Source of the DNA: Centruroides vittatus
Taxonomy: Eukaryota
DNA length: 18,213 nucleotides
Reading direction: 5' to 3'
Assembly: GCF_030686945.1 (NCBI RefSeq)
Contig: NW_027122668.1
Coordinates: 252,099-270,311, forward strand
Shown here: positions 2,790 to 17,018 of the stretch, one piece after another
How positions within the stretch are numbered: position 1 is the stretch's first letter
How the letters are laid out: each line of letters opens with the position of its first letter
Translations under genes and position numbers: made by a program
Notes under the pieces: model-generated
Database searches by the model: none
What the model was told of the DNA's origin: nothing
The model's input: only the letters and a program-made list of their open reading frames with translations

Positions 2790-3650
2790 AAAGTAACGAT
2801 AGCGAAGATTAAGATTATTACGTTATAGTCACAAAAGAAAAAGAGTAATTTCATCAACGAACTAAGTATTTCTAAAGAAAGGTCAAATTTGAAAATCGAA
2901 TGTTCCAATATTGTTTGATTTTCACGACGTGTTCTGATTATATCCTTTGATTTTCATCGAATGTTCTAAAGAAGAAAGGTCGAGAAAAACCGAACTAATC
3001 TGTTTAAATTTGAAAATCGAATGTGTTCTAAAATATTACTTTTTTTCTTTTTTCTTTTTTTCCAGAGCCCGTAAATCTTGCACGTCGCTTTCTCTTGTTC
3101 TCCATTGTTACTTCACACTATCATCGTTACTTAACACTTTGGTACTTAAATTTGGTACCCTAACTGTGTACCAAATTTCAACTTTCAACTCCTAACCGTT
3201 TTAGCAAAAATTAAGATTATTATGTTACAGTCAACCTTACCCATTTTCACAGAATGCAAGAATTGGGTCTCCCCTTTTCAGATTAATTACATAATTTTTA
3301 GATGGGTCTAAAAATATATTCAATTTCCTGCAAAAATGAAAAAACCGCATCTGCGTCTTGCACATCGCTTTCTCTTAACAATTCCATTGTTACATAACAC
3401 TTCCATTGTTGACATTTCCATTGTTACTTGACACTTCCATTGTTACTTGACACTTCCATTGTTACTTGACACTTCCATTGTTGCCATTGTTACTTGACAC
3501 TTCCATTGTTGATGGAAGTGTTAAGCCTTAATCCTGTCCCTCTCCCCCGTGGAGAGGAATTTCGAAAAATCCCTTCTTAGTGTGCGTTCTTGTGACATAC
3601 CCTAACTGTGTACCAAATTTCAACTTTCAACTCCTAACCTTTTGGGCTCT
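2790..3650. repeat. Composite tandem repeat block of about three degenerate units. Shared unit starts (gcRaaRattaagattattaYgttaYagtc) are at ~2797 and ~3200. Shared unit ends (cttgcacRtcgctttctctt ... ccctaactgtgtaccaaatttcaactttcaactcctaacc) are at 3075-3196 and 3365-3641. A short sub-repeat ttgaaaatcgaatgttc occurs three times within 2888-3027.
   Basis: Copies were aligned by eye. The 40-bp block ccctaactgtgtaccaaatttcaactttcaactcctaacc is identical at 3149-3188 and 3600-3639. Confidence 0.6.
3384..3511. repeat. Minisatellite of about seven contiguous 19-bp units (ccattgttacttgacactt and variants). It is an expansion inside the second copy of the 2790-3650 repeat and ends in a perfect 11-bp-stem hairpin aacacttccat-tgttg-atggaagtgtt.
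   Basis: Units were read directly. The first copy of the parent repeat (3100-3135) has only about two units, so this is a copy-specific expansion. There are no spacers, so it is not CRISPR-like. Confidence 0.8.
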
Positions 3651-3763: not shown

Positions 3764-4578
3764 TTAAAGAAGTATATCAGTGTGTGTGTCTGTATTCAGG
3801 AATTTTCTCACAATATGACATGTATTCAATATAGTGGCCTTCTGTAGTGTGATGTATGTGTTTCTATTCAATTGTAATGTGCCCAGGCTTTTGTGTAGTG
3901 TGTGTGGTATGACACCTGTAGAGGAGAGAACAACAGGTACAATGAGCACCCTATCCATCCTCCACAGATGCCTTATTTCGTGGGCGAGTTCTGTGTACTT
4001 GCTAATTTTTTCAGTGCATGCGTTTTGTATATTGTGAGTGTTTGGAATGGATATGTCTATAATGTATGTGATTTTATTGTGTTTGTCAATGAGTGTGATG
4101 TCTGGTCTGTTGTGGTAAATTGTTTTATCTGTGATTATGGCTCTGTCGTAGTACATTTTGTGCGTGTTGTTTTCCAATACTGTCTGTGGAATGTATTTGT
4201 AGTATGGTTCGTGGATGTCTACTAATTTGTGTTTCTTTGCAAGCTCTTGGTGTATTATATTTGCTATTTGATTATGTCTGTGTAAATAATCTGTCTGTGC
4301 CAAGAGCTTGCAACCAGAGGTGATGTGTTGTATAGTTTCTGGCATGATGTGACATTTTCTGCATGTGTCATTTGTGAGTGTTGTATCTTTGAGTATGTGT
4401 TTTCTGTAGTTTTTAGTATTTATGACCTGATCCTGTATGGCGATCATGAATCCTTCCGTCTCCCCAAAGAGGCATCCCTGAGCTAACCAGCTGTTTGACG
4501 CAGTTTTGTCAACAAAATCCTGGGCCAGATCATAAGGATGCCTGCCATGGAGTGCCTTTCGAGCCCACGATTGCTTAA
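3764..4578 (-). pseudogene. 5'-truncated non-LTR retrotransposon (LINE) ORF2 C-terminal fragment. It comprises the 227-aa ORF plus about 44 further in-frame codons upstream, an ~87-bp 3' UTR and a (TAA)n tail.
   Basis: The translation contains the C-x2-C...ET..H....C zinc-knuckle-like motif (DTCRKCHIMPETIQHITSGCKLL...HRHNQIANIIHQEL), followed by ...HNRPDITLIDKHNKITYIIDISIPNTHNIQNACTEKISKYTELAHEIRHLWRMDRVLIVPVVLSSTGVIPHTLHKSLGTLQL.... Both are conserved in C-terminal regions of many invertebrate non-LTR ORF2 proteins. The reading frame stays open upstream to ~4578 (...WARKALHGRHPYDLAQDFVDKTASNSWLAQGCLFGETEGF-MIAIQ) and then runs into a poly-N tract translated from the (TTA)n microsatellite. 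Confidence 0.6.
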
Positions 4579-4580
4579 TG

Positions 4581-4622
4581 TTATTATTATTATTATTAAC
4601 TCGTCTTGATTATATATATATA
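4581..4622. repeat. (TTA)6 microsatellite at 4581-4598, immediately followed by a (TA)7 microsatellite at 4609-4622.
   Basis: Read directly. Confidence 0.8.
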
Positions 4623-4751
4623 GATTGGTTAATGTTAGTATAAAATAGCACTCTAACTGCCTACCTTTAGAAAAAAATTATTTTATAGTTTAATTTTATT
4701 TAAAAAATAACTGACTATTTTTACAAATTTAAAAAAAAATACTTAGAAAAG

Positions 4752-5184
4752 ACTAAAATGTTTTTTTTTTGCCATGTCCAATCACCAGAAACAGCAGTTC
4801 TCCATTGCAGAGACAACCTTTTAGGTTAATGTTACCCTTAGTGCCAAGATGGCGACTCATCTCTGATTCCAGCAAGGAAACAGTGGGATGCACGTTCTAA
4901 CCTAACCTAGCCTATTCTAATAAATTACCATAATTATCAGCAACCAAATTATTAGAATAGGTTAGGTTAGGTTAGAACGTGCATCCCACTGTTTCCTTGC
5001 TGGAATCAGAGACGAGTCGCCATCTTGGCATCAAGGGTAACATTAACTTTAAAAATATAATTTCACTTAAAAATGGCTGACATATTCACACAAAAAATTA
5101 CATAGAAGAAACTAAAATATCTCTGCAATGTAAGACTGTTGTTCCTGGTGATTGGATATGCTGAAAAAATGAAGACATTTTAGT
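4752..5184. repeat. Larger foldback with imperfect inverted arms at 4752-4813 and 5120-5184 (core ...actaaaatg...atccaatcaccagRaacaRcagtYYtMcattgcagaga). Its loop contains MITE copy 1 (4826-5046).
   Basis: The reverse complement of 5120-5184 aligns to 4752-4813 with about 85% identity by eye. Confidence 0.55.
4826..5046. mobile_element. MITE family A, copy 1. It is a 221-bp near-perfect hairpin with ~100-bp arms and a ~25-bp loop, and TTAA at both ends (4826-4829 and 5043-5046). Each arm carries three TTAGG/CCTAA units.
   Basis: Left arm gttaatgttacccttagtgccaagatggcgactcatctctgattccagcaaggaaacagtgggatgcacgttctaacctaacctag.... The right arm is its reverse complement. Two further copies lie at 6031-6251 and 13628-13848. 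Confidence 0.8.
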
Positions 5185-6030
5185 ATTTTCTACATATTTT
5201 TAAAAATTATTTTATATTAAATACTAATAGATAGGCAAGTAGATACTGTAGAGTGGGTTATATGAAAGTTTTATTTTCATTCTTGCAGTTTTCTGTCGGG
5301 TATGTGCCATTGCGGGTCATCCACCTGAAATAATGGTGCATTTTGAAGATTATGAATCAAGAGGTTCATGTTATATTTCAAGCAGGGTTAGACTTAATGA
5401 AAATTTTACTTGTTTATTGGCATTACAATATTTTAAAATGTCAAACTCTACTTCAAAAAAATAAAACTTTTGTCTTTTATAGTAATTTACATTATAAAAG
5501 AAATTATTTTTTTAATAAAATCTCTTAACAGATGGCATTCTATGTATTTTAACTTTGAGCTCCTACCTTGAAATTATCTTAGTGTTTTTAGTATTATTAT
5601 TTAAGTTTTACATAATAGTATAACTGACAATTATCAAACTTCCTTCCTGGTTCCATTAACTTCCAGTTCGAGAGCTTGGGAAGGTTGTGCAAGAACCTTG
5701 CCACCGTCTTTCCTAAAGTTTTGATCTCTATCACACTATTGACACCTATTACGGTGAAATGTCGGTAAAACGAAATTGAGGGGACCATCAAAATATTTTC
5801 CTTATATTGAAACACAATCAAAAATATAAGGATAAAAGAAATTTATTGATGATAAAAAAAATTGCTTACATTTTGAAGTAAGAAGGTTTTAAACATGCAA
5901 TTTGTCTATTAGTATTTATATGGAACAAAATTTTATATTGTTAGAACGTAAGTTATATTAAATTAGAATAAAAATTATTCTGTAATAAAAAATTATCAAA
6001 AAATACGAGCGAATGACTAAAATTAACAGG

Positions 6031-6251
6031 TTAATGTAACCCTTGGTGCCAAGATGGCGGCCCGTCTCTGATTCCAGCAAGGAAACAGTGAGACGCACGT
6101 TCTAACCTAACCTAGTCTATTCTAATAATTTGGTTGCTAATAATTATGGTAATTTATTAGAATAGGCTAGGTTAGGTTAGAACGTGCGTCCCACTGTTTC
6201 CTTGCTAGAATCAGAGACAAGCAGCCATCTTGGCACCAAGGGTTACATTAA
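6031..6251. mobile_element. MITE family A, copy 2. It has the same 221-bp hairpin with TTAA at 6031-6034 and 6248-6251.
   Basis: About 90% identical to copy 1 by eye. The arms contain ctaacctaacctag and ctaggttaggttag. Confidence 0.8.
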
Positions 6252-6599
6252 CCAAATAACAATATAGTAGTACCGATTAGTTGAAATCCTGCCTCTTCCA
6301 TTGTTGTTTCTGCTTGAAGCCATTATTTTCTGGTAAAAGAAGTCTAATTTTTGTGTGTTGTTTCTTTAATCAAGTTTTTTCGATGAAATCTAGTACTGTG
6401 ACAGCATCCGGTAGGCCATCGGGCACATCTTTTTGTTTAATTCCTTTTTGCATGTTATCTAATATTTTATTAGTCTCTTTCAAAGAAAATTGCTTTTGTT
6501 TGTTTTATTTTTCTCCATTTTTTCTCATAAACTTAAAAAGAAATAAACTGTAGAGTAATAACATTACAACGAAACCATAACTTAGGATTAAAATTAATA

Positions 6600-7021
6600 C
6601 AGGTATACCTCGACTTACGTCCCTCTCGTAACTCAAGGTCCTGAGTTTACGTCGTTTGTCAAAAAAGTATATAGAAAAATAAAAATCAAAGTTTAAGTCA
6701 TTTTATTCGACTTTAAATCCGTCCGCCACAAATATTGAAGTCGTAATATCACTAGAAAAGCGTTAAAAGCACATAAAATCATATTAAAATATGTACATTT
6801 ACAGTAAATGTTAATATAATCATCATAAATCCTAGAGAACGAAACATGAAAACATCTGTGTTTCTGTGTTGTCTTATTATTTAGCAGTCTTTAAGTGCTC
6901 ATTATTGGCGTTTAGTTATGACGTAAGTCGAAACTACGACTTACGTCGTAACTACACGAGTAAATTCGACTTACGTCGCCTCTCCTGGAACCAATTACCG
7001 ACGTAAGTCGAGGTATACCTG
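6600..7021. mobile_element. Tc1/mariner-type (Stowaway-like) MITE of 422 bp. Its ~22-bp TIR is CAGGTATACCTCGACTTACGTC, and TA is duplicated on both flanks (6598-6599 and 7022-7023). Four subterminal copies of GACTTACGTCG, in alternating orientation, lie at 6919-7010.
   Basis: The TIR and the flanking TA were read directly. Subterminal repeats gacgtaagtcg, cgacttacgtcg, cgacttacgtcg and gacgtaagtcg are present. A TA TSD together with a CAGG terminus is the established Tc1/mariner signature. Confidence 0.7.
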
Positions 7022-7630
7022 TATTGTGAGACTGTTTAACATAATATTCATCATTTACTAATAATGAATGATTTATGCATTTATAAATTTCATCGTAATG
7101 AAACTATTCGTTTGTAACGGGAAGAATTTGTATTAAGTTAAACTGAAATACTTGTTATAATGATATTTGTTAAACAGAAACATTTTTGCATTGAGCTTAA
7201 TAGGAAATTGGTCCTTTGCTTTTTAAATTTCTCTCAGGCTCTGTCTGAGAGGATTCACGCACAGTTCTATGCATTTTTTGCAGATCTAAATGAAAGCCCA
7301 TTCTCATTTGTAACAAAATCAAGTAACAGTTTTAATATCCAAGAAGATGAATGGGGAAGCCCAGTAGTAGTAGAGTTTAAGTGTAATTTTTCAATATGAC
7401 ATCTAAAAAGCAGAGAACTGTGTATTAAGGAGTTGGTTGATCGATATCTGGGAGGATTCTTAAATATTTTTCAGAATATATTTTTAATTTTAGGTATTAG
7501 TAGAATTTTACCAAACAGATGTAATGTGTACATGATACCTTAAACTCTTGTCAGGAACAGCCTTATGCTAGCAAAATATAAGTATTTTTAGTATTTTGTT
7601 GTAAAGAGGTAAACACTAATTTTAAAATAC

Positions 7631-7736
7631 TGTTGATCTAGTAATAGTCTCTTTAATCCGAAAAATATATTGACGGTAGACTGTCTCACAGTCTACATAT
7701 ATTTCTCGGATTAAAGAGACTATTACTAGATCAACA
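7631..7736. repeat. 106-bp hairpin with 40-bp arms (one mismatch) around a 26-bp loop that itself contains a smaller palindrome (gtagactgt-ctc-acagtctac).
   Basis: Left arm tgttgatctagtaatagtctctttaatccgaaaaatatat. Right arm atatatttctcggattaaagagactattactagatcaaca. Confidence 0.75.
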
Positions 7737-7853
7737 TATAATCCAGCTACCATAGGAAATTTAATTAAATACTATTGTTTAGGATATTGTTTCACAAAAA
7801 TTTAAATTAAAAGCTGACAATAGCACTTGCACGACTTTCCCAGAAAATTATTG

Positions 7854-7906
7854 AACTTCCTTCCTGGTCCTCTTAACCTCCTGTTAAGAGGACCAGGAAG
7901 GAAGTT
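7854..7906. repeat. 53-bp palindrome aacttccttcctggtcctcttaac-ctcc-tgttaagaggaccaggaaggaagtt. Its left half resembles 5636-5666 (aacttccttcctggttccattaacttcc).
   Basis: Read directly. A probable related copy lies at 5636. Confidence 0.65.
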
Positions 7907-9587
7907 TAATCATTTTCAAATATACAATAGAAAATTTTTAAATAATAATGGAAAATATTGATTATTTGATATATTGATACAACATTTTCCAATATCAGTA
8001 ATATCGAACATCAATAACAATATTAAATATTAAATTGCATACTTCTAGCCCTTCTGTTTACAAATATTAATTATTTTGTTACAATTATCCAATATACTAA
8101 TTTGTATAACAAACCAGTCAAAAAAATGTAAACTGATGATGGCATAATGCCGAAATGCATATTTATTAAGAGGCCGTAAATCTGAATAAGCCTTTTATTG
8201 TAAAAATAGTCGAGCATTGCATTTTAATGTTAAATAAAAACTAAAATTTGAAAATCTGTCTCCGCATATGATAAGCCTTAAAAAAACATTATAGGCCTAA
8301 AAGGATAATTGTAACAAAATAATTCATAATAATAATAAATAATTAAAGTATTTTCTTCCAATTAGTTTTTATATATTGCTGCGGCTCTGTTTTCCCACTG
8401 TGTCATTCATGGTGCAGGGGTTAGCGTCTTTACCTATCAGACGGAAGGTTTCCGGTTTTAACCTCTTTGATGTGGTTCTTTTTTTTTGTGTGTACGTTCT
8501 CCTGGTCTGAGAACACGTGTTAATTCGTTATCATTTACATATTTCAACCATGTCCGCACAGTATATAATCGCGAGCTCTCAGGTTGAGGGCAGTTATTAT
8601 CTAGCACTGCAAGCTGCAGTGATTGTACTGTGGTGTTCTATAAAAGTGAGGCAGTACGGTCCGCGAATGAAACGTACAGAAAGGACTCTGCAACGACTAC
8701 AATAATAGACAATGTCCCTTTATTCCACTTAGAACAAATAAGGTTTTTTTTTGATAAGGAATCCCAACTGACTTTTTTATGACTTACAAATTGAGGTGTT
8801 TCACACAGGGGACTCTGTCCCTAAACAAAGCACAATGGTGTGTTATTTTTCTAGCACGTAACAATCAGTTCCTCGTAATTGCGTGACTAACCTGACTTAA
8901 ATCTAGCTTAAATCTAACTTAATATTAAGGAAAAATAAGAAAGATAGGATAATGGGAAGGTAGAAGAAATGAAGGAATGATTCACCCGGAGTTTTCTCTT
9001 TCTTCGGCGGATACGTACTTTGTGTATGATCTGGGTTCGACGATAGTAGCTTTCTTCACTATCCTTTCTTCTCTCAATTATCGGGGTTCTCTAATATGCC
9101 GGTCTCTATATTTCGGTTCCTCACTAGACTATCGCCAACTTCTTTCCTCTCTCGGAAATCACGATTGAGCCTCTCTCTTTTCGTCCTTCTCTCTTCGTGT
9201 CTAGTCAAAAAGTGACTCCTCTCTTAGCCACTTTTTCCCCAGGCCACACTACCTGCTATTGTCCCTACCGATTCTCGGAACGGCTAATCCAGCCCCATGG
9301 CGATAACGGTCATCTTGGAAAGTTTAATAAGAAAGAATAGACAAAGGAAAAAAGAGGAAATTGCAAAAATAATATAGGATTATAACTATATACAATAAAA
9401 TATATATATACAATATGGCCGACGGTCACAGTACGTTCTCTGAGTGAGTAAACATCCCTTTGTGTTCCTAAAGACTGGTTGCCGTTTGTCTCTGCGACAA
9501 TATTTATCATGATAAATTCTGATTTAACTAGTTTTACATTAGTTTTTACATCTCTTTTAAATTAATTCATAGTCCTTTCTTATGTTT

Positions 9588-9657
9588 CCGGCATGGAAGT
9601 CAATGTAAAAACAAAAATACCTGATGCTGGTGTTTTTATATAGACTTCCATGCTGGC
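9588..9657. repeat. 70-bp imperfect hairpin with ~26-bp arms (ccggcatggaagtcaatgtaaaaaca / tgtttttatatagacttccatgctggc).
   Basis: Read directly. There are three mismatches. Confidence 0.6.
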
Positions 9658-9725
9658 AACATATGCAAGATCAGAGTGAATTAATTTAGAGAATAGTTCC
9701 AGTTTTAGTAATAATTTGATACTTA

Positions 9726-10770
9726 CAGTAGCGCATCGATTATCCAACCCCCGATTAACCGTCACATCGGTTAACCGACCACGTTCTAGTCGGCAAATTC
9801 AAATGTCTGCTAGTGATGTGGCGCTACAATATTTGGCTATGTCTTGGCTACTTTAATATTATTTTTGTTAAATTTTTGCACGTTTTAGCTGGAAACACTG
9901 GCTCGACCACAAAAGGGAGGCCAGTATTTAAACCAGGCTTAATTTTCTATTTTTATCTTTATTTTTGTTTCTATTTCTTCTTTGAAACCATGTTTTCTTG
10001 ATTGTTGGACTATGAACCCAAAGTTGAGTTTTAATTAAACACTTGGCTTTATTTCCATCTTTATTTAGTTGATACGTGCCATTTGCACGTTTCGGGCATA
10101 GAGCCCCTCATCAGTCAACTAAACAATACAACAATTAAAATACACTACACTTAGTTACACAATTAAAATACAATTACACTAAGTATTTTACCAAACAAAA
10201 TCAACACAAGGTATGGTTCTTACCATTATCATATTCGATCTGCCATGCATACAAGGTTTAAACTCAGTCGACACATGTATCTTATTTTTTCTATAAACGG
10301 AGTAATCCCTTTTACACACAATATTTATATCTGGTATAAAAACAATGTATAAGAATATAAGCTGTATATAATAAGTTATTTTTAAAAAATGTAAAAATTC
10401 TTTAAAAGCACTGACAGGAAGTAGATTAACCAATTACCTGTTGTACTGTACATAATCTTTTGCTTATTTTACAATATCCAGTTACCAATAATTCCTTTAT
10501 TTTTATATTTATTTTGTTCAAAATAAAGAAATAATTTTTAACGATACAATAGCGATGATTATTATTTTTAAAAAGAATTTTGTTAGGCTTAACATCGATG
10601 AAAATTCAACGCGAAGTAGGTTAATAGCGATATACTTATATACTAATTGTATGGGATATACTAATATACTATACTAATAATATATTTTTTCATATTTTTT
10701 GGTTATCCGTTTTTTCAGTTATCCGACCAACCCCAGTCCCCAGTTGAGTCGGATAATCGATGCTCTACTG
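9726..10770. mobile_element. Non-autonomous Tc1/mariner-like DNA transposon, family B, element 1 (1045 bp). Its TIR is CAGTAGCGCATCGATTATCC / GGATAATCGATGCTCTACTG, flanked by TA (9724-9725 and 10771-10772). It appears to be an internal-deletion derivative of element 2.
   Basis: The 20-bp TIRs (one mismatch) and both TA flanks were read directly. The 3' ~230 bp (10540-10770) align to 12820-13026 of element 2, sharing ttaggcttaaMatcgaYgaaaattcaacRcgaag, ggttatccg and cagttatccgaMcaaccccagtYcccaRttga. The 5' stretch caaaataaagaaataatttttaacgatacaat at 10513-10545 matches 11797-11828. Confidence 0.7.
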
Positions 10771-10829
10771 TATTTCGGAATTAAGCTTTTTTCCCTTCTT
10801 ACAACATCTATGTTTTTTTACTCCACCAA

Positions 10830-11540
10830 AGACAAAAAGTATAATGATAAATGGAAAAGATACACTGCATCAATTTGTGATGATATGGTGACAATGAGTA
10901 ATTCAGAAAGAGAAATGAATCATATGCTTAGTAAACTTCACAAGAACATACGTCAATGGGGTTTAAAGATAAACATTAAGAAAAAAGAGGTGACGGTAGT
11001 AGAAAAGAACACTGAAAGGACAAAAGCTAATGTCAGGATTGACAGAAAGATAAAATTTCTTACTTGTTCTGCTCCTATTGAGGGAATGAAGTCAGGGAAG
11101 ACAAGATATATAAAGGATAGGACTCATGAAACAAGCTTTCCAAAACAAAAGAAATCCACTAATGTCAAAATACCTGAGTATGGAAGCAAAGAATTTGTTT
11201 TTGTATTTACTAAGACATTCCTCTGTTGTATAGAAGTGAATGCTGGACACTAGGAAAGCAAGAGATGATGTGTCTGGAGGGAGCAGAAATGTGGATATGA
11301 AGGAGAGTAAACAAAATAAGCTGGACTGAACAGAAAACAAATGAAACAATTCTGACGGAAGTGACAGAACAAAGGAAGTTAATACAGGAAATAGGGAAAA
11401 GAAAAATTAAATTTATAGGTCATATTGTTAGGCACAATAATTTCCTGAAAACGATCCTTGAAGGAAGAGTTCTCAGAAAGAAAGGAAGAAGACCAAAGAA
11501 AAAGTATCTTGAAGAAGTCAATACTTCTGTGGAATTCTGA
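10830..11540 (+). pseudogene. Decayed non-LTR retrotransposon ORF2 fragment (reverse-transcriptase C-terminal part plus conserved tail). It is frameshifted and has internal stops.
   Basis: The ORF at 10699-11253 (its first ~45 codons lie in the family B 3' TIR and are not coding) contains the RT motif region ...SICDDMVTMSNSEREMNHMLSKLHKNIRQWGLKINIKKKEVTVV.... This is a degenerate form of the conserved YADD and GLKIN..KTKVM reverse-transcriptase motifs. Further downstream, in other frames, lies ...WTLGKQEMMCLEGAEMW...KISWTEQKTNETILTEVTEQRKLIQEIGKRKIKFIGHIVRHNNFLKTILEGRVLRKKGRRPKKKYLEEV. This matches a C-terminal tail, WTL...E..L.AFEMW..RR.L.ISW...TNE.VL......R.L...I..RK..F.GH..R........EG...GK..RGRP, that I recall from many invertebrate LINE ORF2 proteins. 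Confidence 0.6.
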
Positions 11541-11605
11541 AGTTATTATGAATTAAAAGGACAGAGAGCATTGGTTGCAGTGACAAGGCAAAACCTTTAG
11601 TAATA

Positions 11606-13026
11606 CAGTAGAGCGTCATTTATCCGAAAGCCGGTCAACCGAAAGCTTTCCAGTCGGACTGTGTCGTGCTGAATCAAACGTTTTTGATACTAGATTAACT
11701 TCTAAAGTATAATTTTTTTTGTTTTTATATTTTTCAATATATTTTATTTTGTTTGTACAAAATAAATATATTGAAAAATAACAAAATATACAAAATAAAG
11801 AAATAATTTTTTAACGATACAATTTGCGTTTTTCATGAACTATAGAGGGCGCTGCATTTTTTACAAAATGGCTGCTTCATCTGGGTCGTTTGTAACTAGT
11901 AATGTAAAATTAATCATATATTACTGTCCGATATAATGATATATGCTGCTTGTAGCTGTTTATCGAGAAATTTTATAGTAGGAGAACAATTATTGCTAGC
12001 GGGACACTGTCATTATGTGGTATCGAAACAAGTGAGAGAGATCATTCTATATATATTTGTGCCCTTTGTGTTAAAAACATCAGCTTTGACATTGTCATAT
12101 CAGGGCTGGATTTACAAGTAAAAAGCTACGTAAATTGTTGCTTAGGGCTTCGACTTTCAAGGGGCCTCAAACATTTGTACAAAAAAAAATTAAAGTCGAA
12201 TTTTGTAATAAACATTTTTTACAAACCAACAATATATACTTTACTTTTTATTTTGTGTAGTATTTCATTAATTTTTTCTAAGAATTAACATAAAGATTTT
12301 TAATGGAATGAGTATAAAAATTTAATTAAATTCAGTTATAAAACAGAAGACTAGTGAAACCTCACATCTTTTTCTTCCAATAACGATATTGAATCAGAAA
12401 GATAGTCTGATTTAATTCTTTTATTTTTATGATTGACTTCTAAAATTGTGAAGGGTTGGTAAGGGGACTTACAGAGTTCAGCTTAGGGCTTCGAAATGCT
12501 TAAATCTCCTATCTTTGTTTAAAGTTGGACAATCAGGAAACCGGCAATTCTTAACAGTTTAATCCACTCTTTCAGAATTCGGAGAAGCTCATAAATATAA
12601 CTGACCGATTTCCGAAGAATCATCTGTTTTTCGTGTGGGAATAGACGAAAACTTATATTAGGCTCCCGTAAGTCTTTGAAATTGTAATTTGGAACGCAAC
12701 AGAAAGCTTTGCTTTTTCTATTGCTATTCATCTTTACTGCTGATAATAGACAAGGATTAAGCAAACGACCCAGATAGAATAGTTTTGTTTTTAAACACCA
12801 GAGGGCGAGCATTCGGTGAAAAATGCGAATAGCCTCAATTATTATTATAAAAATTTTCGTTAGGCTTAAAATCGACGAAAATTCAACACGAAGCGACACA
12901 CAACGGAGAAAATTTTCAACATTGGATAGGTTAATATATTTTTTCGTACATAATTGGTTATCCGAAAAAATCAGTTATCCGAACAACCCCAGTTCCCAAT
13001 TGATTCGGATAAATGACGCTCTACTG
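11606..13026. mobile_element. Non-autonomous Tc1/mariner-like DNA transposon, family B, element 2 (1421 bp). It has perfect 23-bp TIRs CAGTAGAGCGTCATTTATCCGAA, flanked by TA (11604-11605 and 13027-13028). TTATCCGA subterminal motifs occur, twice direct plus once inverted at the 3' end and once in the 5' TIR.
   Basis: The TIR was read on both ends, and the reverse complement of the right end equals the left end exactly. A TA flank plus a CAGT terminus is the established Tc1/mariner signature. The element has no transposase ORF. The 126-aa ORF at 12519-12899 (minus strand) is low-complexity and overlaps the conserved 3' repeat region. Confidence 0.75.
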
Positions 13027-13268
13027 TAGATAGAATCTCTCACCAAAAATGAAAATTATTACAGGAAATATGGTATTACTGGGAGACTCAGACTTTATGG
13101 CACTTTCCTTCATTTTAAACATTTTATGTAAAAAATATGATTACAAAATATGCATGAAAATTGTTAAATTGTTTGACAATCTTTCTTGCATAACCATTTG
13201 TAATGTTAGAAAGATGATCGACACACTAGCGTTGATAATCTTTCTATTATTACAATACAAATTATTAA

Positions 13269-13308
13269 CCTTTGAAGCATTATCAACACAATAGATAATG
13301 CTTCAAAG
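13269..13308. repeat. Perfect 15-bp-stem hairpin ctttgaagcattatc-aacacaata-gataatgcttcaaag. It is preceded by direct and inverted copies of gaYaatctttct at 13176-13249.
   Basis: Read directly. Confidence 0.7.
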
Positions 13309-13627
13309 TCTAATGATTAATTTAACAAGCTATAAAGTTTTTCTAGTTCTACATACTGTACTTAAAAATAACAAAATAGATGTGTTGGTTATTGATAAGA
13401 ATAATAAGCATAACTAGACACCTATAACCAGCAAAAGGTATACTTTAAAGGAAATGAATGTTTTCTTTAAAATGTATGTCATAAATGTGCACCAACTTTT
13501 TTGAATACACATTTGATTTTATTTTTGTTTCATTTAATCTGATGATGTCAGTTTAAAAGTATCAATTTTTACTGGTTATAGTTGTGTTAGTATACAGCAG
13601 TATACAAGTATTGATAAGAATTTGTGG

Positions 13628-13848
13628 TTAATGTTTACCTATGGTTCCAAGATAACAGCTCATCTGATTCCAGCAAGGAAACAGTGGGGACGCACGTTCT
13701 AACCTAACCTAACCTATTTTAATAATTTTGTTGGTAATAATTATGGTAATTTAATAGAATAGGTTAGGTTAGGTTAGAGCGTGCGTCCCCACTGTTTCCT
13801 TGCTGGAATCAGACGAGCTGCCATCTTGGAACCATAGGTAACATTAAC
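13628..13848. mobile_element. MITE family A, copy 3. It has the same 221-bp hairpin with TTAA at 13628-13631 and 13845-13848 and (CCTAA)3/(TTAGG)3 in the arms. Its outer arm ends are more divergent (gttccaagataacagc versus gtgccaagatggcg in copies 1 and 2).
   Basis: Read directly and aligned to copies 1 and 2. Confidence 0.8.
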
Positions 13849-14314
13849 CGAATTTATATTATTTTTGTGTGATAAATATTCAATTACAGTGGAGTCTGCC
13901 TGTTTTAGTCATTTACGACATTTGCTTACACTGATAACAATAAATAGTGTACAGTACATAAATGAGACTGATTACAATTAGTGGAATTTTTATTTTTATT
14001 GACAATAAAAGGACATCTTAAAACAATTATAAAATGTGTAACTTGAAGATTTATTAAATATAATTTTTATTAATTAATAATAATTCATCCAAAAAATATA
14101 TTTTCAATAACAAATGCCAGCAGTTTAAACTACTGCACTGTGAACAAATAATGATTTTAACAATAAAGCAGTAGCTAATGATTGCATGTTTCAACCACAT
14201 GTTGAGACTGATATAGATGGCATTTACTTCAAGAAAAAGAATTTTTTTCTAAGATTTCTATCATGTCTTCTTGAAGCTCATAATAAATTGACATGGATTG
14301 GTGATATTCATTCC

Positions 14315-15595
14315 TTATGGACAGTATGTTTTCAATTTTGTGTGCTTTGCCTTCCAGAATAATTCGGCTATATGTCTTTCTGAATAGTCAGTCATTTGAT
14401 TCAATGATTCCCAAGCATTTTCAGGTAGCTGAGCAAGATTAAGGCTATGAAAGGCACAATGTGCCAACTGAAATATAGTCTGCTTGAATGTAGGCTTGAG
14501 ATCCATGCATTTTCCCACTTACGTTCATTGTTCCATCATATCTTCGACCATATAGATAGGTGTATCAATACCATTCTCTGTATTCAATGCAAAAATTAGA
14601 TAGCAGTTGTAAAATTTTTCTCCGTGCAGTCTGCCAGATACACAGCTTACAAAACTTTTTTATTGTGAATTTGTTGCCTTCTCTTATATAATATATAATG
14701 CAGATATATGGAAGGTTGCTCCAAACCAAAAATGTCTGACGTTTCATTAGCTAACAGTGAGAAAGTTTAGATTTATTAATACTGTGTATCAACTTTTTCG
14801 ATTGTTTGTTTTTTGTGAAAACTAGAAATCATTTTGGATTCTGTTACTTGTGTGTAGAGCATTTTTTAATAACTCGAAATGTTTTTTATTGGGTCATCTT
14901 GTAGTTCAGTGCCAGAGAAGAGCCTAGAAGTTGCTATTATTTACAGCAAGCACTTCAACTGTTATTTGACTATCTTTTTAGTCCTTCATGGTTAAACTCA
15001 TTCTGCAGAAGTACTGTCTGTTCAAAATTCTAACTTTCTGTTATGGTCATCAGGACACAATGCCTGCAGTAACTGCAACTTGTACAGCTTTGTATTTGGA
15101 CATTTTTTAAGAACACACCATACTGTTGTTTGAGGAATTCCAAGTTCAATGCTTGTCCATGTTGTGGATCATAGGGCTTTTTTTTTGATACACCTCGGAT
15201 ATGCTTGACATTTTCATCTGGCATTCGAAGACAACCAGTGCTTTTCCATTTGCACATGCAGCCATCTTCTAAGAATTATTTTAAATTTACTTATGACAAG
15301 ATGGTTGTTTGTTGAACCAGTGGTGAAATTCATGTTGCACTTCAACACTTCACAAACTGCGGCACAAAAAATGACTTCACTTATGATACCATTTTCTTAT
15401 AAACAAGAAACAGTGCTGCTGATTGACACTGAAATTAACTTCTAGGTGGGCTTTTAAAACTTTGAACCTTCCTCTATCAATGATATGCAGAATGTGTTTC
15501 CATCTCTTAGTTTGAAATAAAAATTCAAAATATTCTCCATCTTTTTGAATAACCATGTATAAAATTACATAATAAAGCAAAATTAAATTATCCAA
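14315..15595 (-). pseudogene. Possible decayed coding remnant. Four short minus-strand ORFs (72, 75, 60 and 67 aa) lie with none on the plus strand and are joined only through frameshifts. The product is cysteine-rich (C-x6-C...C-x2-C-x2-C-x2-C). Identity is unknown; it could be a TE-derived transposase fragment.
   Basis: The evidence is strand bias of ORFs in the track, plus my own translation of 15258-15376 in a second frame (VIFCAAVCEVLKCNMNFTTGSTNNHLVISKFKIILRRWLH), which overlaps the start of the next ORF, so the two are linked by a frameshift. The motif ...FQTKRWKHILHIID... weakly resembles the piggyBac transposase 'TN/KRWpm..f..lld' region, but this is not convincing. GTG and TTG starts are used in the track, so the ORF boundaries are artificial. 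Confidence 0.3.
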
Positions 15596-16791: not shown

Positions 16792-17018
16792 AATAGCGAG
16801 GTTGAGGCCAAAGTTTTAAATGCGAAAATGTGTACGTCAGACGTTCGGCGCCGCTTTCCTGTAAGCCTAGAAGTTTGACAATCGCGTTTGGAATGTCGAG
16901 CATGATTCCACTGACTTTCCAAACGCCATTGCCAAACTTCTAGGCTTACAGGAAAGCAGCGCCGAACGTCCGACGTACACGTTTTCGCGTTTAAAACTTC
17001 GGCCTCAACCTCACTAAT
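16792..17018. repeat. ~225-bp palindrome or foldback that is GC-richer than its surroundings. The arms are ~100 bp (16792-16893 and 16916-17018) around a ~22-bp centre. Most arm mismatches are CpG-to-TpG/CpA transitions.
   Basis: The left arm gaggttgaggccaaagttttaaatgcgaaaatgtgtacgtcagacgttcggcgccgctttcctgtaagcctagaagtttgacaatcgcgtttggaa was compared with the reverse complement of the right arm. The differences are ccAaag/ccGaag, aTgcg/aCgcg, aaTgtg/aaCgtg, tcAgac/tcGgac, agCgagg/agTgagg and gcCgc/gcTgc. Confidence 0.75.

Follow-up and report, generated by a model that had tools for sequence, protein, structure and literature searches.

Merlin transposases are DDE enzymes of the IS1595/IS1016-like type. 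Duplications of 8 bp at the target site are also made by other superfamilies, such as hAT, whose duplicated 8-mers follow the pattern nTnnnnAn. P elements have ends of the CATG type, and piggyBac elements, which are common in Lepidoptera, possess inverted repeats that begin with 5'-CCC/CCY right after TTAA. The defining traits of Merlin elements are inverted repeats 24-462 bp long, a terminal 5'-GG-3' that is conserved, and target duplications of 8 or 9 bp (Feschotte 2004, summarised in PMC8101967), and insect MITEs of Merlin type have already been catalogued in iMITEdb (PMC5199201). By structural hallmarks alone, that is, because of its GG termini, its 8-bp duplication and its long inverted repeats, the family described here is probably a non-autonomous cut-and-paste MITE of Merlin type, with TTAA inside the terminal inverted repeat, an 8-bp target duplication and a Merlin transposase as mobiliser.

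The window, the whole stretch of 18,213 nucleotides that was analysed, holds three related elements where a sequence-only reading had placed them, except that the right TTAA of copy 3 ends at 13847 rather than 13848. With the GG/CC ends included, each copy measures 224-225 bp (n=3). The identity of about 90% given by the same reading is slightly generous: copy 1, taken as its reverse complement, is 92% identical to copy 2, while copy 3 is ~86% identical to either and is a diverged subfamily. Since the copies diverge by 8-14%, the family does not appear to be young. Judged by its asymmetric loop, copy 1 lies in the opposite orientation to copies 2 and 3, and the sequences that flank the copies beyond GG/CC are unrelated to one another. 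The conserved 20-mer GATTCCAGCAAGGAAACAGT occurs six times at no more than 3 mismatches, compared with 0.01 occurrences expected by chance. The elements are shorter than 800 bp, non-coding, bounded by terminal inverted repeats and present in several homogeneous copies, as is generic for MITEs, so that the earlier classification as a short, non-coding, multi-copy MITE built of inverted repeats holds. The window is repeat-rich in general and contains a 227-aa reverse-transcriptase ORF whose best homologues are 65-72% identical.

Table 1. Positions of the MITE copies, their flanking duplications, their telomere-like blocks and a further hairpin element in the window.
Feature	Position	Strand	Sequence or remark
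MITE copy 1	4824..5048	-	GGTTAATG...CATTAACT
MITE copy 2	6029..6253	+	GGTTAATGTAACCC...GGGTTACATTAACC
MITE copy 3	13626..13849	+	GGTTAATGTTTACC...AGGTAACATTAACC
Left 8-bp target-site duplication, copy 2	6021..6028	.	AATTAACA
Right 8-bp target-site duplication, copy 2	6254..6261	.	AAATAACA
Left 8-bp target-site duplication, copy 3	13618..13625	.	GAATTTGT
Right 8-bp target-site duplication, copy 3	13850..13857	.	GAATTTAT
Telomere-like block, copy 1 left arm	4897..4912	-	CTAACCTAACCTAGCC
Telomere-like block, copy 1 right arm	4960..4975	+	GGTTAGGTTAGGTTAG
Telomere-like block, copy 2 left arm	6102..6117	-	CTAACCTAACCTAGTC
Telomere-like block, copy 2 right arm	6165..6180	+	GGCTAGGTTAGGTTAG
Telomere-like block, copy 3 left arm	13699..13714	-	CTAACCTAACCTAACC
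Telomere-like block, copy 3 right arm	13762..13777	+	GGTTAGGTTAGGTTAG
Second hairpin element	16794-17016		TA-flanked, Tc1/mariner-like

All six ends read TTAA, as had been stated from the sequence. The palindrome extends two bases past this motif, to GGTTAA...TTAACC, at five of the six ends; the sixth terminus, where the 3' terminal C of copy 1 is T on the + strand, is AG instead of the GG typical of Merlin. Directly outside GG/CC, copies 2 and 3 are flanked by direct repeats of 8 bp (AATTAACA/AAATAACA and GAATTTGT/GAATTTAT) that match at 7 of 8 positions each, and the empirical chance that a random pair in the window reaches at least 7/8 is 0.0015 per pair. When 90 pairings of a boundary offset with a repeat length were compared, an 8-bp repeat outside GG/CC came out best and 9-mers fitted worse; of the 8 or 9 bp known from Merlin, 8 bp is thus the best fit for copies 2 and 3, which are a small sample. 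The GG...CC beyond TTAA and the 8-bp direct repeats farther out thus place TTAA within the terminal inverted repeat and set the length of the target duplication at 8 bp. Copy 1 has no recognisable 8-bp duplication, since ACCTTTTA (4816-4823) and TTAAAAAT (5049-5056) agree at 0/8 positions. This copy sits in the loop of another foldback, formed by an inverted repeat at 4735-4827 and 5109-5201. An inversion between copies 1 and 2 was considered as the cause of the missing duplication and rejected, as the flanks of copy 2 match each other.

If the family is of Merlin type, a Merlin transposase produced from another locus of the genome would most likely have mobilised it in trans. Such an enzyme would bind both ends of the MITE, whose true termini are predicted to be 5'-GGTTAATG...CATTAACC-3', and then excise the element; reinsertion at cuts staggered by 8 bp would generate the target duplication. 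The empty sites are predicted to read ...gactaaaAATTAACAatatagtag... for copy 2 and ...gataaGAATTTGTatattatttt... for copy 3, with a single 8-mer, or its variant, and without TTAA.

It is conceivable, but decidedly unlikely, that TTAA is the duplicated target around a core TGTTACCC...GGGTAACA, mobilised by piggyBac or by a superfamily with 4-bp duplications such as Kolobok or Ginger2. The sequence-only reading had offered a piggyBac-style duplication as one option and TTAA within the inverted repeat as a fallback, and it is the fallback that the data favour. TTAA at every end would indeed be expected from such a MITE, and copy 1 fits this explanation as well as any other. However, the GG or CC directly outside TTAA at five of the six ends is a context (GGTTAACC) found at only 1 of the 225 TTAA sites of the window, and neither a 4-bp duplication nor TTAA cut-and-paste can yield the 8-bp direct repeats of copies 2 and 3. 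The core that follows TTAA, moreover, lacks the CCC/CCY start of piggyBac ends. While TGTTAC, immediately internal to TTAA, is similar to TGTTACGG, the inverted repeat listed for Ginger2 among Bombyx MITEs, the sites targeted by Ginger2 MITEs are TATA-like rather than TTAA (PMC3845634 table 1). Ginger2/TDD, with TGT...ACA termini and an AT-rich duplication of 4-5 bp, was accordingly discarded as a candidate, as TGTTAC lies 6 bases inside the end of the palindrome and the duplication is 8 bp. It is rather unlikely that the family is mobilised not by Merlin but by another superfamily whose duplications measure 8 bp, be it hAT, P or a Mutator-like element of atypical kind. A duplication of this length is a hallmark of hAT and P too, so that the hAT length is matched here; Lepidoptera commonly have hAT MITEs flanked by duplications of 8 bp (PMC3845634 table 1), and none of the nine lepidopteran loci sampled proved to be a Merlin partner with matching ends. 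The ends, however, point away from these superfamilies, as they read GGTTA and are neither of the YARNG type with which the short inverted repeats of hAT start nor of the CATG type of P elements; lepidopteran hAT MITEs start with CAGTG/CGGTG (PMC3845634 table 1). Likewise, with A as their second base and C/G as their seventh, AATTAACA and GAATTTGT do not follow nTnnnnAn, the 9-bp repeats expected of a Mutator-like element give the poorer fit, and the conserved 5'-GG is the published signature of Merlin (PMC8101967).

Each copy consists of a ~103-bp stem and a ~19-nt loop. In all three, arms of 94-108 nt that are 93-94% complementary (94% in copy 1, 93% in copies 2 and 3) enclose a spacer of 19 nt and form a near-perfect hairpin; the DNA fold of copy 2 has -108 kcal/mol, compared with -22.8 +/- 3.4 for shuffled sequences (z = -25). 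The copies have neither an ORF nor a Pfam domain: stop codons arise in all six frames from the telomere-like block, and ORFs within the MITE stay below ~35 aa. The private changes of copy 3 are present in both of its arms and, when the three copies are compared, eight stem pairs are altered on both sides and indels are mirrored. Such joint change of both arms is relevant to how palindromic MITEs arise and stay symmetric. This mirroring, the extreme hairpin of copy 2 and Rfam matches below threshold to miRNA families with perfect hairpins could all be taken to mean that the locus is chiefly a source of hairpin or small RNA, or else a satellite of palindromic form, retained for its structure and with mobility secondary or absent, a scenario that we regard as extremely improbable. 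Mirrored changes are equally expected from palindromic master copies that diverge into subfamilies, and the covariation statistic, which 2 of 500 shuffles reach, is weak with three sequences. No Rfam family reaches its gathering threshold for the copies, and the sub-threshold matches, which fall on both strands, are to generic models of miRNA hairpins from unrelated plant and animal families, which argues that they reflect shape only. Finally, the copies occur in both orientations, with unrelated flanks and with duplications.

To compare the MITE with Merlin elements of Lepidoptera, Merlin transposases from the supplements of PMC8101967 served as queries for lepidopteran homologues. Loci were taken from eleven species, P. 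machaon, P. mnemosyne, C. pomonella, L. glycinivorella, L. sticticalis and P. napi as well as S. litura, S. frugiperda, P. operculella, C. eurytheme and E. clarus, and nine Merlin loci of two lineages were compared with the MITE. The Merlin element of Parnassius mnemosyne (L002 4867-9290) has ends that read GG(A/T)TAAAATTTCC... and GTACAATA as its 8-bp duplication, which is perfect, and that of Spodoptera frugiperda (L009 4338-8305) has ~1-kb inverted repeats beginning with GGTCAGAG and the perfect 8-bp duplication GACTATTT. These two serve as positive controls, with GG ends and 8-bp duplications as in the MITE. The MITE and the Parnassius repeat have the tip GGTTAA (10 of the first 13 bases agree) and a CCAAnATGG motif in common. 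Over their whole length, the MITE arms were not significantly similar to the inverted repeats found in the sampled lepidopteran Merlin elements (local alignment against shuffles, p > 0.1), and neither GGTTAATGTTACCC ends nor the MITE itself occurred in any of the lepidopteran loci taken, among which no autonomous partner was found. Exact-pattern scans with the conserved 20-mer and with a degenerate 29-nt end pattern gave 0 matches in viral and metagenome contigs. The sole match in prokaryotic genomes, in Effusibacillus (L013), comprises only the 20 bases, about what chance would give in 596 Gb, and was dismissed. Six sequence strings from the MITE were looked for in a collection of papers, and none was found there.

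The telomere-like repeats that had been noticed in each arm are indeed present: every arm has a (TTAGG)~3 block, and in the window such blocks are found only inside the copies. The perfect form GGTTAGGTTAGGTTAG is present in both arms of copy 3 and in one arm of copy 1, whereas each arm of copy 2 has one mismatch. The blocks comprise 2.6-3.2 clean units with degenerate units around them (TTAGA ATAGG TTAGG TTAGG TTAGA) and rank with the most strongly conserved stretches in all six arms. Lepidopteran telomeres have TTAGG as their repeat, short internal TTAGG arrays occur in nearly all lepidopteran genomes, and it is debated whether these arrays originate from DNA break repair or from mobile elements (bioRxiv 10.1101/2025.03.14.642909). 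Similar blocks lie within two of the sampled lepidopteran Merlin elements, that of P. mnemosyne (L002 5312-5329) and that of locus L007, which has a tandem array of ~10 units (4541-5711). We infer that the family carries the (TTAGG)~3 block as a passenger or as a subterminal motif, and that the block is not a sign of telomeric origin. A bolder and very unlikely proposal is that a (TTAGG)3-5 block is a functional subterminal module of lepidopteran Merlin elements and that MITE dispersal is one source of internal TTAGG arrays. Its hints are the conservation of the block across the arms, the blocks in L002 and L007 and the concerted evolution of the arms. Such a module may, for example, be bound by the transposase or by a telomere-repeat-binding protein of the host. 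With two TTAGG blocks per copy, a high-copy family could explain part of the short internal telomeric arrays of Lepidoptera.

Measured against known systems, the family first recalls piggyBac-derived MITEs, which are likewise small and have TTAA at both ends. In contrast to these, its TTAA lies inside the conserved inverted repeat, its 8-bp duplication lies outside, and its ends lack CCC. An element bounded by TTAA thus looks like a piggyBac derivative, yet its flanks disagree, and tools that use the terminal 4-mer would misfile it. The second hairpin of the window is similar in size (~220 bp), in the complementarity of its arms (~91-94%), in its short loop and in being non-coding, but it differs in its unrelated sequence, its other ends, its TA duplication instead of 8 bp and its lack of a telomere-like block. 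Compared with Merlin elements, the MITE differs in being an almost perfect palindrome with a loop of only 19 nt, in its (TTAGG)~3 block per arm and in that one of its three copies is without a recognisable duplication. It resembles them in its terminal 5'-GG, its 8-bp duplication and its inverted repeats of ~103 bp, within the published range; in the absence of coding capacity, as in MITE derivatives of Merlin; and in the GGTTAA tip that it has in common with the Parnassius/Cydia lineage. As a probable member of this superfamily, it would be a routine new entry in the small catalogue of insect Merlin-type MITEs.

The three-copy hairpin element of the sequence-only reading was confirmed with minor corrections, and it is a real, ordinary MITE family. 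In a self-BLAST, copy 2 is 92% identical to copy 1 read as its reverse complement, and copy 3 is about 86% identical to either of them, so that "about 90%" becomes 86-92%; the end of copy 3, placed at 13848, was corrected to 13847, and the inversion of copy 1 had gone unmentioned. All three are nearly perfect inverted repeats, with arms (94-108 nt) that are 93-94% complementary around a 19-nt spacer. The folding energy of copy 2 as single-stranded DNA is -108 kcal/mol, compared with -22.8 +/- 3.4 in dinucleotide shuffles (z = -25), and a 20-mer of the arm occurs six times in the window, once in each arm (expected 0.01). At gathering thresholds the MITE has no Rfam match; the weaker matches, which occur on either strand, are to generic miRNA models of perfect hairpins. 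No further copies turned up when viral, metagenomic and prokaryotic collections and the paper library were scanned; the sole prokaryotic match is a bare 20-mer, at chance expectation.

The piggyBac look of this MITE is misleading. In an alignment of the three copies that includes the flanks, conservation passes the TTAA by two bases, so that five of the six ends read GGTTAA...TTAACC (the remaining one has AG), and the flanks outside GG/CC are unrelated between copies. The k-mer left of each candidate left boundary was compared with the k-mer right of the mirrored right boundary, at 10 offsets and k = 2-10 (90 offset/length combinations). Apart from TTAA, whose self-match is trivial, a strong signal is seen only at k = 8 immediately outside GG/CC, where the flanking 8-mers of copy 2 (AATTAACA / AAATAACA) and of copy 3 (GAATTTGT / GAATTTAT) each match at 7/8 positions; 9-base repeats fit less well. 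Random 8-mer pairs at equal spacing in the window match at 7/8 or better with a frequency of 0.0015, and two such pairs among three copies are far beyond chance, with the 90 combinations allowed for. Copy 1 departs from this pattern: there is no match between its flanks, ACCTTTTA and TTAAAAAT, and one of its terminal bases is altered, for which a small deletion could be the cause. Among the window's 225 TTAA sites, only one has the GGTTAACC context. With TTAA as the target, three insertions would have to have struck that context, a specificity without precedent, and nothing would explain the 8-bp repeats further out. Thus, from the conserved GG/CC beyond TTAA, the outer repeats and the rare context, we conclude that TTAA lies inside the inverted repeat and take the duplicated target to be 8 bp long, which speaks against a piggyBac-style TTAA duplication and favours the other option originally offered, TTAA within the TIR. 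The sole GGTTAACC of the window, at 9769-9776, is also the sequence predicted for two joined element tips; at least one occurs in 37 of 200 shuffles, and it is probably without meaning.

A duplication of 8 bp, or close to it, is common to hAT, P and Mutator-like elements. hAT elements characteristically end in YARNG and P elements in CATG; the MITE has neither, its duplicated 8-mers are without the hAT target pattern, and a 9-bp duplication, as Mutator-like elements would be expected to leave, is a poorer fit, making this group, taken jointly, an unlikely source. An origin from a TTAA-type superfamily, including the Ginger2-like reading prompted by TGTTAC, is improbable. Merlin elements, as defined in PMC8101967 (citing Feschotte 2004), are characterised by 8- or 9-bp duplications and by inverted repeats, 24-462 bp long, whose terminal 5'-GG-3' is conserved, and Merlin-type MITEs are a recognised insect class (iMITEdb, PMC5199201). 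We therefore favour, as reasonably probable, the view that the window element is a Merlin-type MITE. Since whole-arm similarity to any sampled Merlin repeat is not significant (p > 0.1 versus shuffles) and the MITE was not found in the approximately 190 kb of fetched lepidopteran DNA, this assignment rests on structural hallmarks rather than on a demonstrated parent element.

Two features of the family are mildly interesting, its concerted arms and its telomere-like blocks. The six arms group by copy: the two arms of a copy show 6-9 differences, those of copy 1 against copy 2 show 8-10, and those of copy 3 against the remaining arms 14-17. Eight stem pairs carry changes to both partners in a single one of the three copies, a count reached by only 2 of 500 shuffles, and two indels of copy 3, a 2-nt deletion and a 1-nt insertion, are mirrored between its arms. 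The lineages behind the copies thus diverged yet stayed palindromic. From these three sequences, the symmetry could stem from arm-to-arm conversion, regeneration of the palindrome from one arm, or selection on both ends.

The TTAGG block reported for each arm is indeed present in all six: GGTTAGGTTAGGTTAG is perfect in both copy 3 arms and one copy 1 arm and differs at one base in each of the remaining three, and within the window such blocks are confined to the MITE copies. The presence of 13-16 bases of TTAGG repeats per 100-nt arm is not chance, and because of the palindrome the two blocks of a copy represent one event. That (TTAGG)n is the telomeric repeat holds for Lepidoptera (bioRxiv 10.1101/2025.03.14.642909; PMC9693754). 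Among 532 lepidopteran genomes surveyed, nearly all contain short internal TTAGG arrays, for which mobile elements are one possible source (bioRxiv 10.1101/2025.03.14.642909); a high-copy family of such MITEs would contribute two short TTAGG blocks per insertion. Nothing supports a subtelomeric origin of the MITE or a seeding of long arrays by it. The Merlin elements of Parnassius mnemosyne and Pieris napi carry telomere-like motifs at non-homologous positions, and these are only a lead, since a comparable motif lies in flanking DNA outside the Merlin element of the Spodoptera frugiperda locus (L009 ~11476-11491).

The window (G+C ~32%) is full of transposon debris, and no host gene was recognised in it. 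All named homologues among the best-scoring matches of the reverse-transcriptase ORF come from Lepidoptera, at 60-72% identity (Helicoverpa, Parnassius, Epargyreus, Manduca, Plutella and others), with non-lepidopteran insects lower in the list at no more than 53%; judged by these homologues, the host would most likely be a moth or butterfly. The other decayed fragments comprise a Tc1/mariner HTH_Tnp_Tc3_2 helix-turn-helix piece, two further reverse-transcriptase pieces and a mariner-like N-terminal piece, the last recognised by eye only, without a domain match. The unrelated second hairpin MITE ends in (TA)GCGAGGTTGAGG...CCTCAACCTCAC(TA), and its TA flanks suggest a Tc1/mariner-type (Stowaway-like) element. 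The small hairpin repeats, of which that at 7631-7736 has 40-nt arms (98% complementary), are probably further MITE-like elements. MITE copy 1 lies within another foldback (4735-4827 and 5109-5201, ~79-82% complementary), and a short unit (..tac-tagaa-a-actaaaat..) at ~4735-4760, 5095-5120 and 5995-6025 adjoins copies 1 and 2, which may have inserted into members of one older repeat family.

Features of the window and of the lepidopteran Merlin loci (L002, Parnassius mnemosyne; L007, Pieris napi; L009, Spodoptera frugiperda)
Feature	Position	Strand or orientation	Details
MITE copy 1	4824-5048	opposite to copies 2 and 3, as its asymmetric loop shows	asymmetric loop
MITE copy 2	6029-6253	as copy 3	asymmetric loop
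MITE copy 3	13626-13849	as copy 2	asymmetric loop
Non-LTR reverse transcriptase C-terminus	3767-4609	minus	best matches lepidopteran
Other decayed transposon coding fragments	1977-2387; 10681-11250; 11301-11537; 15033-15275	+; +; +; -	
Second hairpin MITE, unrelated	16794-17016		223 bp; arms 104 nt, 91% complementary; loop 15 nt
Small palindromic/hairpin repeats	7631-7736; 7843-7917 (half-copy 5626-5668); 9558-9688; 11712-11796		75-130 bp
Tandem array	3374-3512		19-bp unit CTTGACACTTCCATTGTTA, ~6-7 copies; flanked by 46-bp repeat (3156-3201, 3598-3643; 98% identical)
Another repeat	10678-10772, 12932-13028; also 10561-10616 / 12838-12893; 11604-11628	11604-11628 inverted	81-86% identical; copies contain TCAGTTATCCGACCAACCCC...GTCGGATAA with short internal inverted repeat
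Parnassius mnemosyne Merlin	L002 4867-9290		ends GG(A/T)TAAAATTTCCAATATGGACCATCGAT, 23/24 positions matching; perfect 8-bp duplication GTACAATA
Its telomere-like motif	L002 5312-5329		single AATAAAATAGGTTAGGTT / AATAGGTTAGGTT; 5' subterminal
Pieris napi Merlin tandem array	L007 4541-5711 (FR997697.1)		~10 units of 110/128 bp, each with ATTATTTAGATTGGTTAGGTTAGAGTTAG / TTGGTTAGGTTAGAGTTAG; 5' subterminal
Spodoptera frugiperda Merlin	L009 4338-8305		~1-kb inverted repeats, start GGTCAGAG; perfect duplication GACTATTT

For comparison, transposases from the PMC8101967 supplements were used to find lepidopteran homologues, whose loci were fetched and yielded two clear elements, in P. mnemosyne (its repeat is also present in Cydia pomonella) and in S. 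frugiperda. The S. frugiperda element (L009 4338-5355 / 7287-8305) and a Phthorimaea operculella locus (L010) represent a second lepidopteran Merlin lineage, with inverted repeats of ~1 kb or more made of internal tandem repeats, which far exceed the 462-bp superfamily maximum quoted in PMC8101967. The P. mnemosyne and S. frugiperda elements have three hallmarks in common with the window MITE, and with the Parnassius lineage the MITE also shares its tip, namely GGTTAA, 10 of the first 13 bases and a CCAAnATGG motif.
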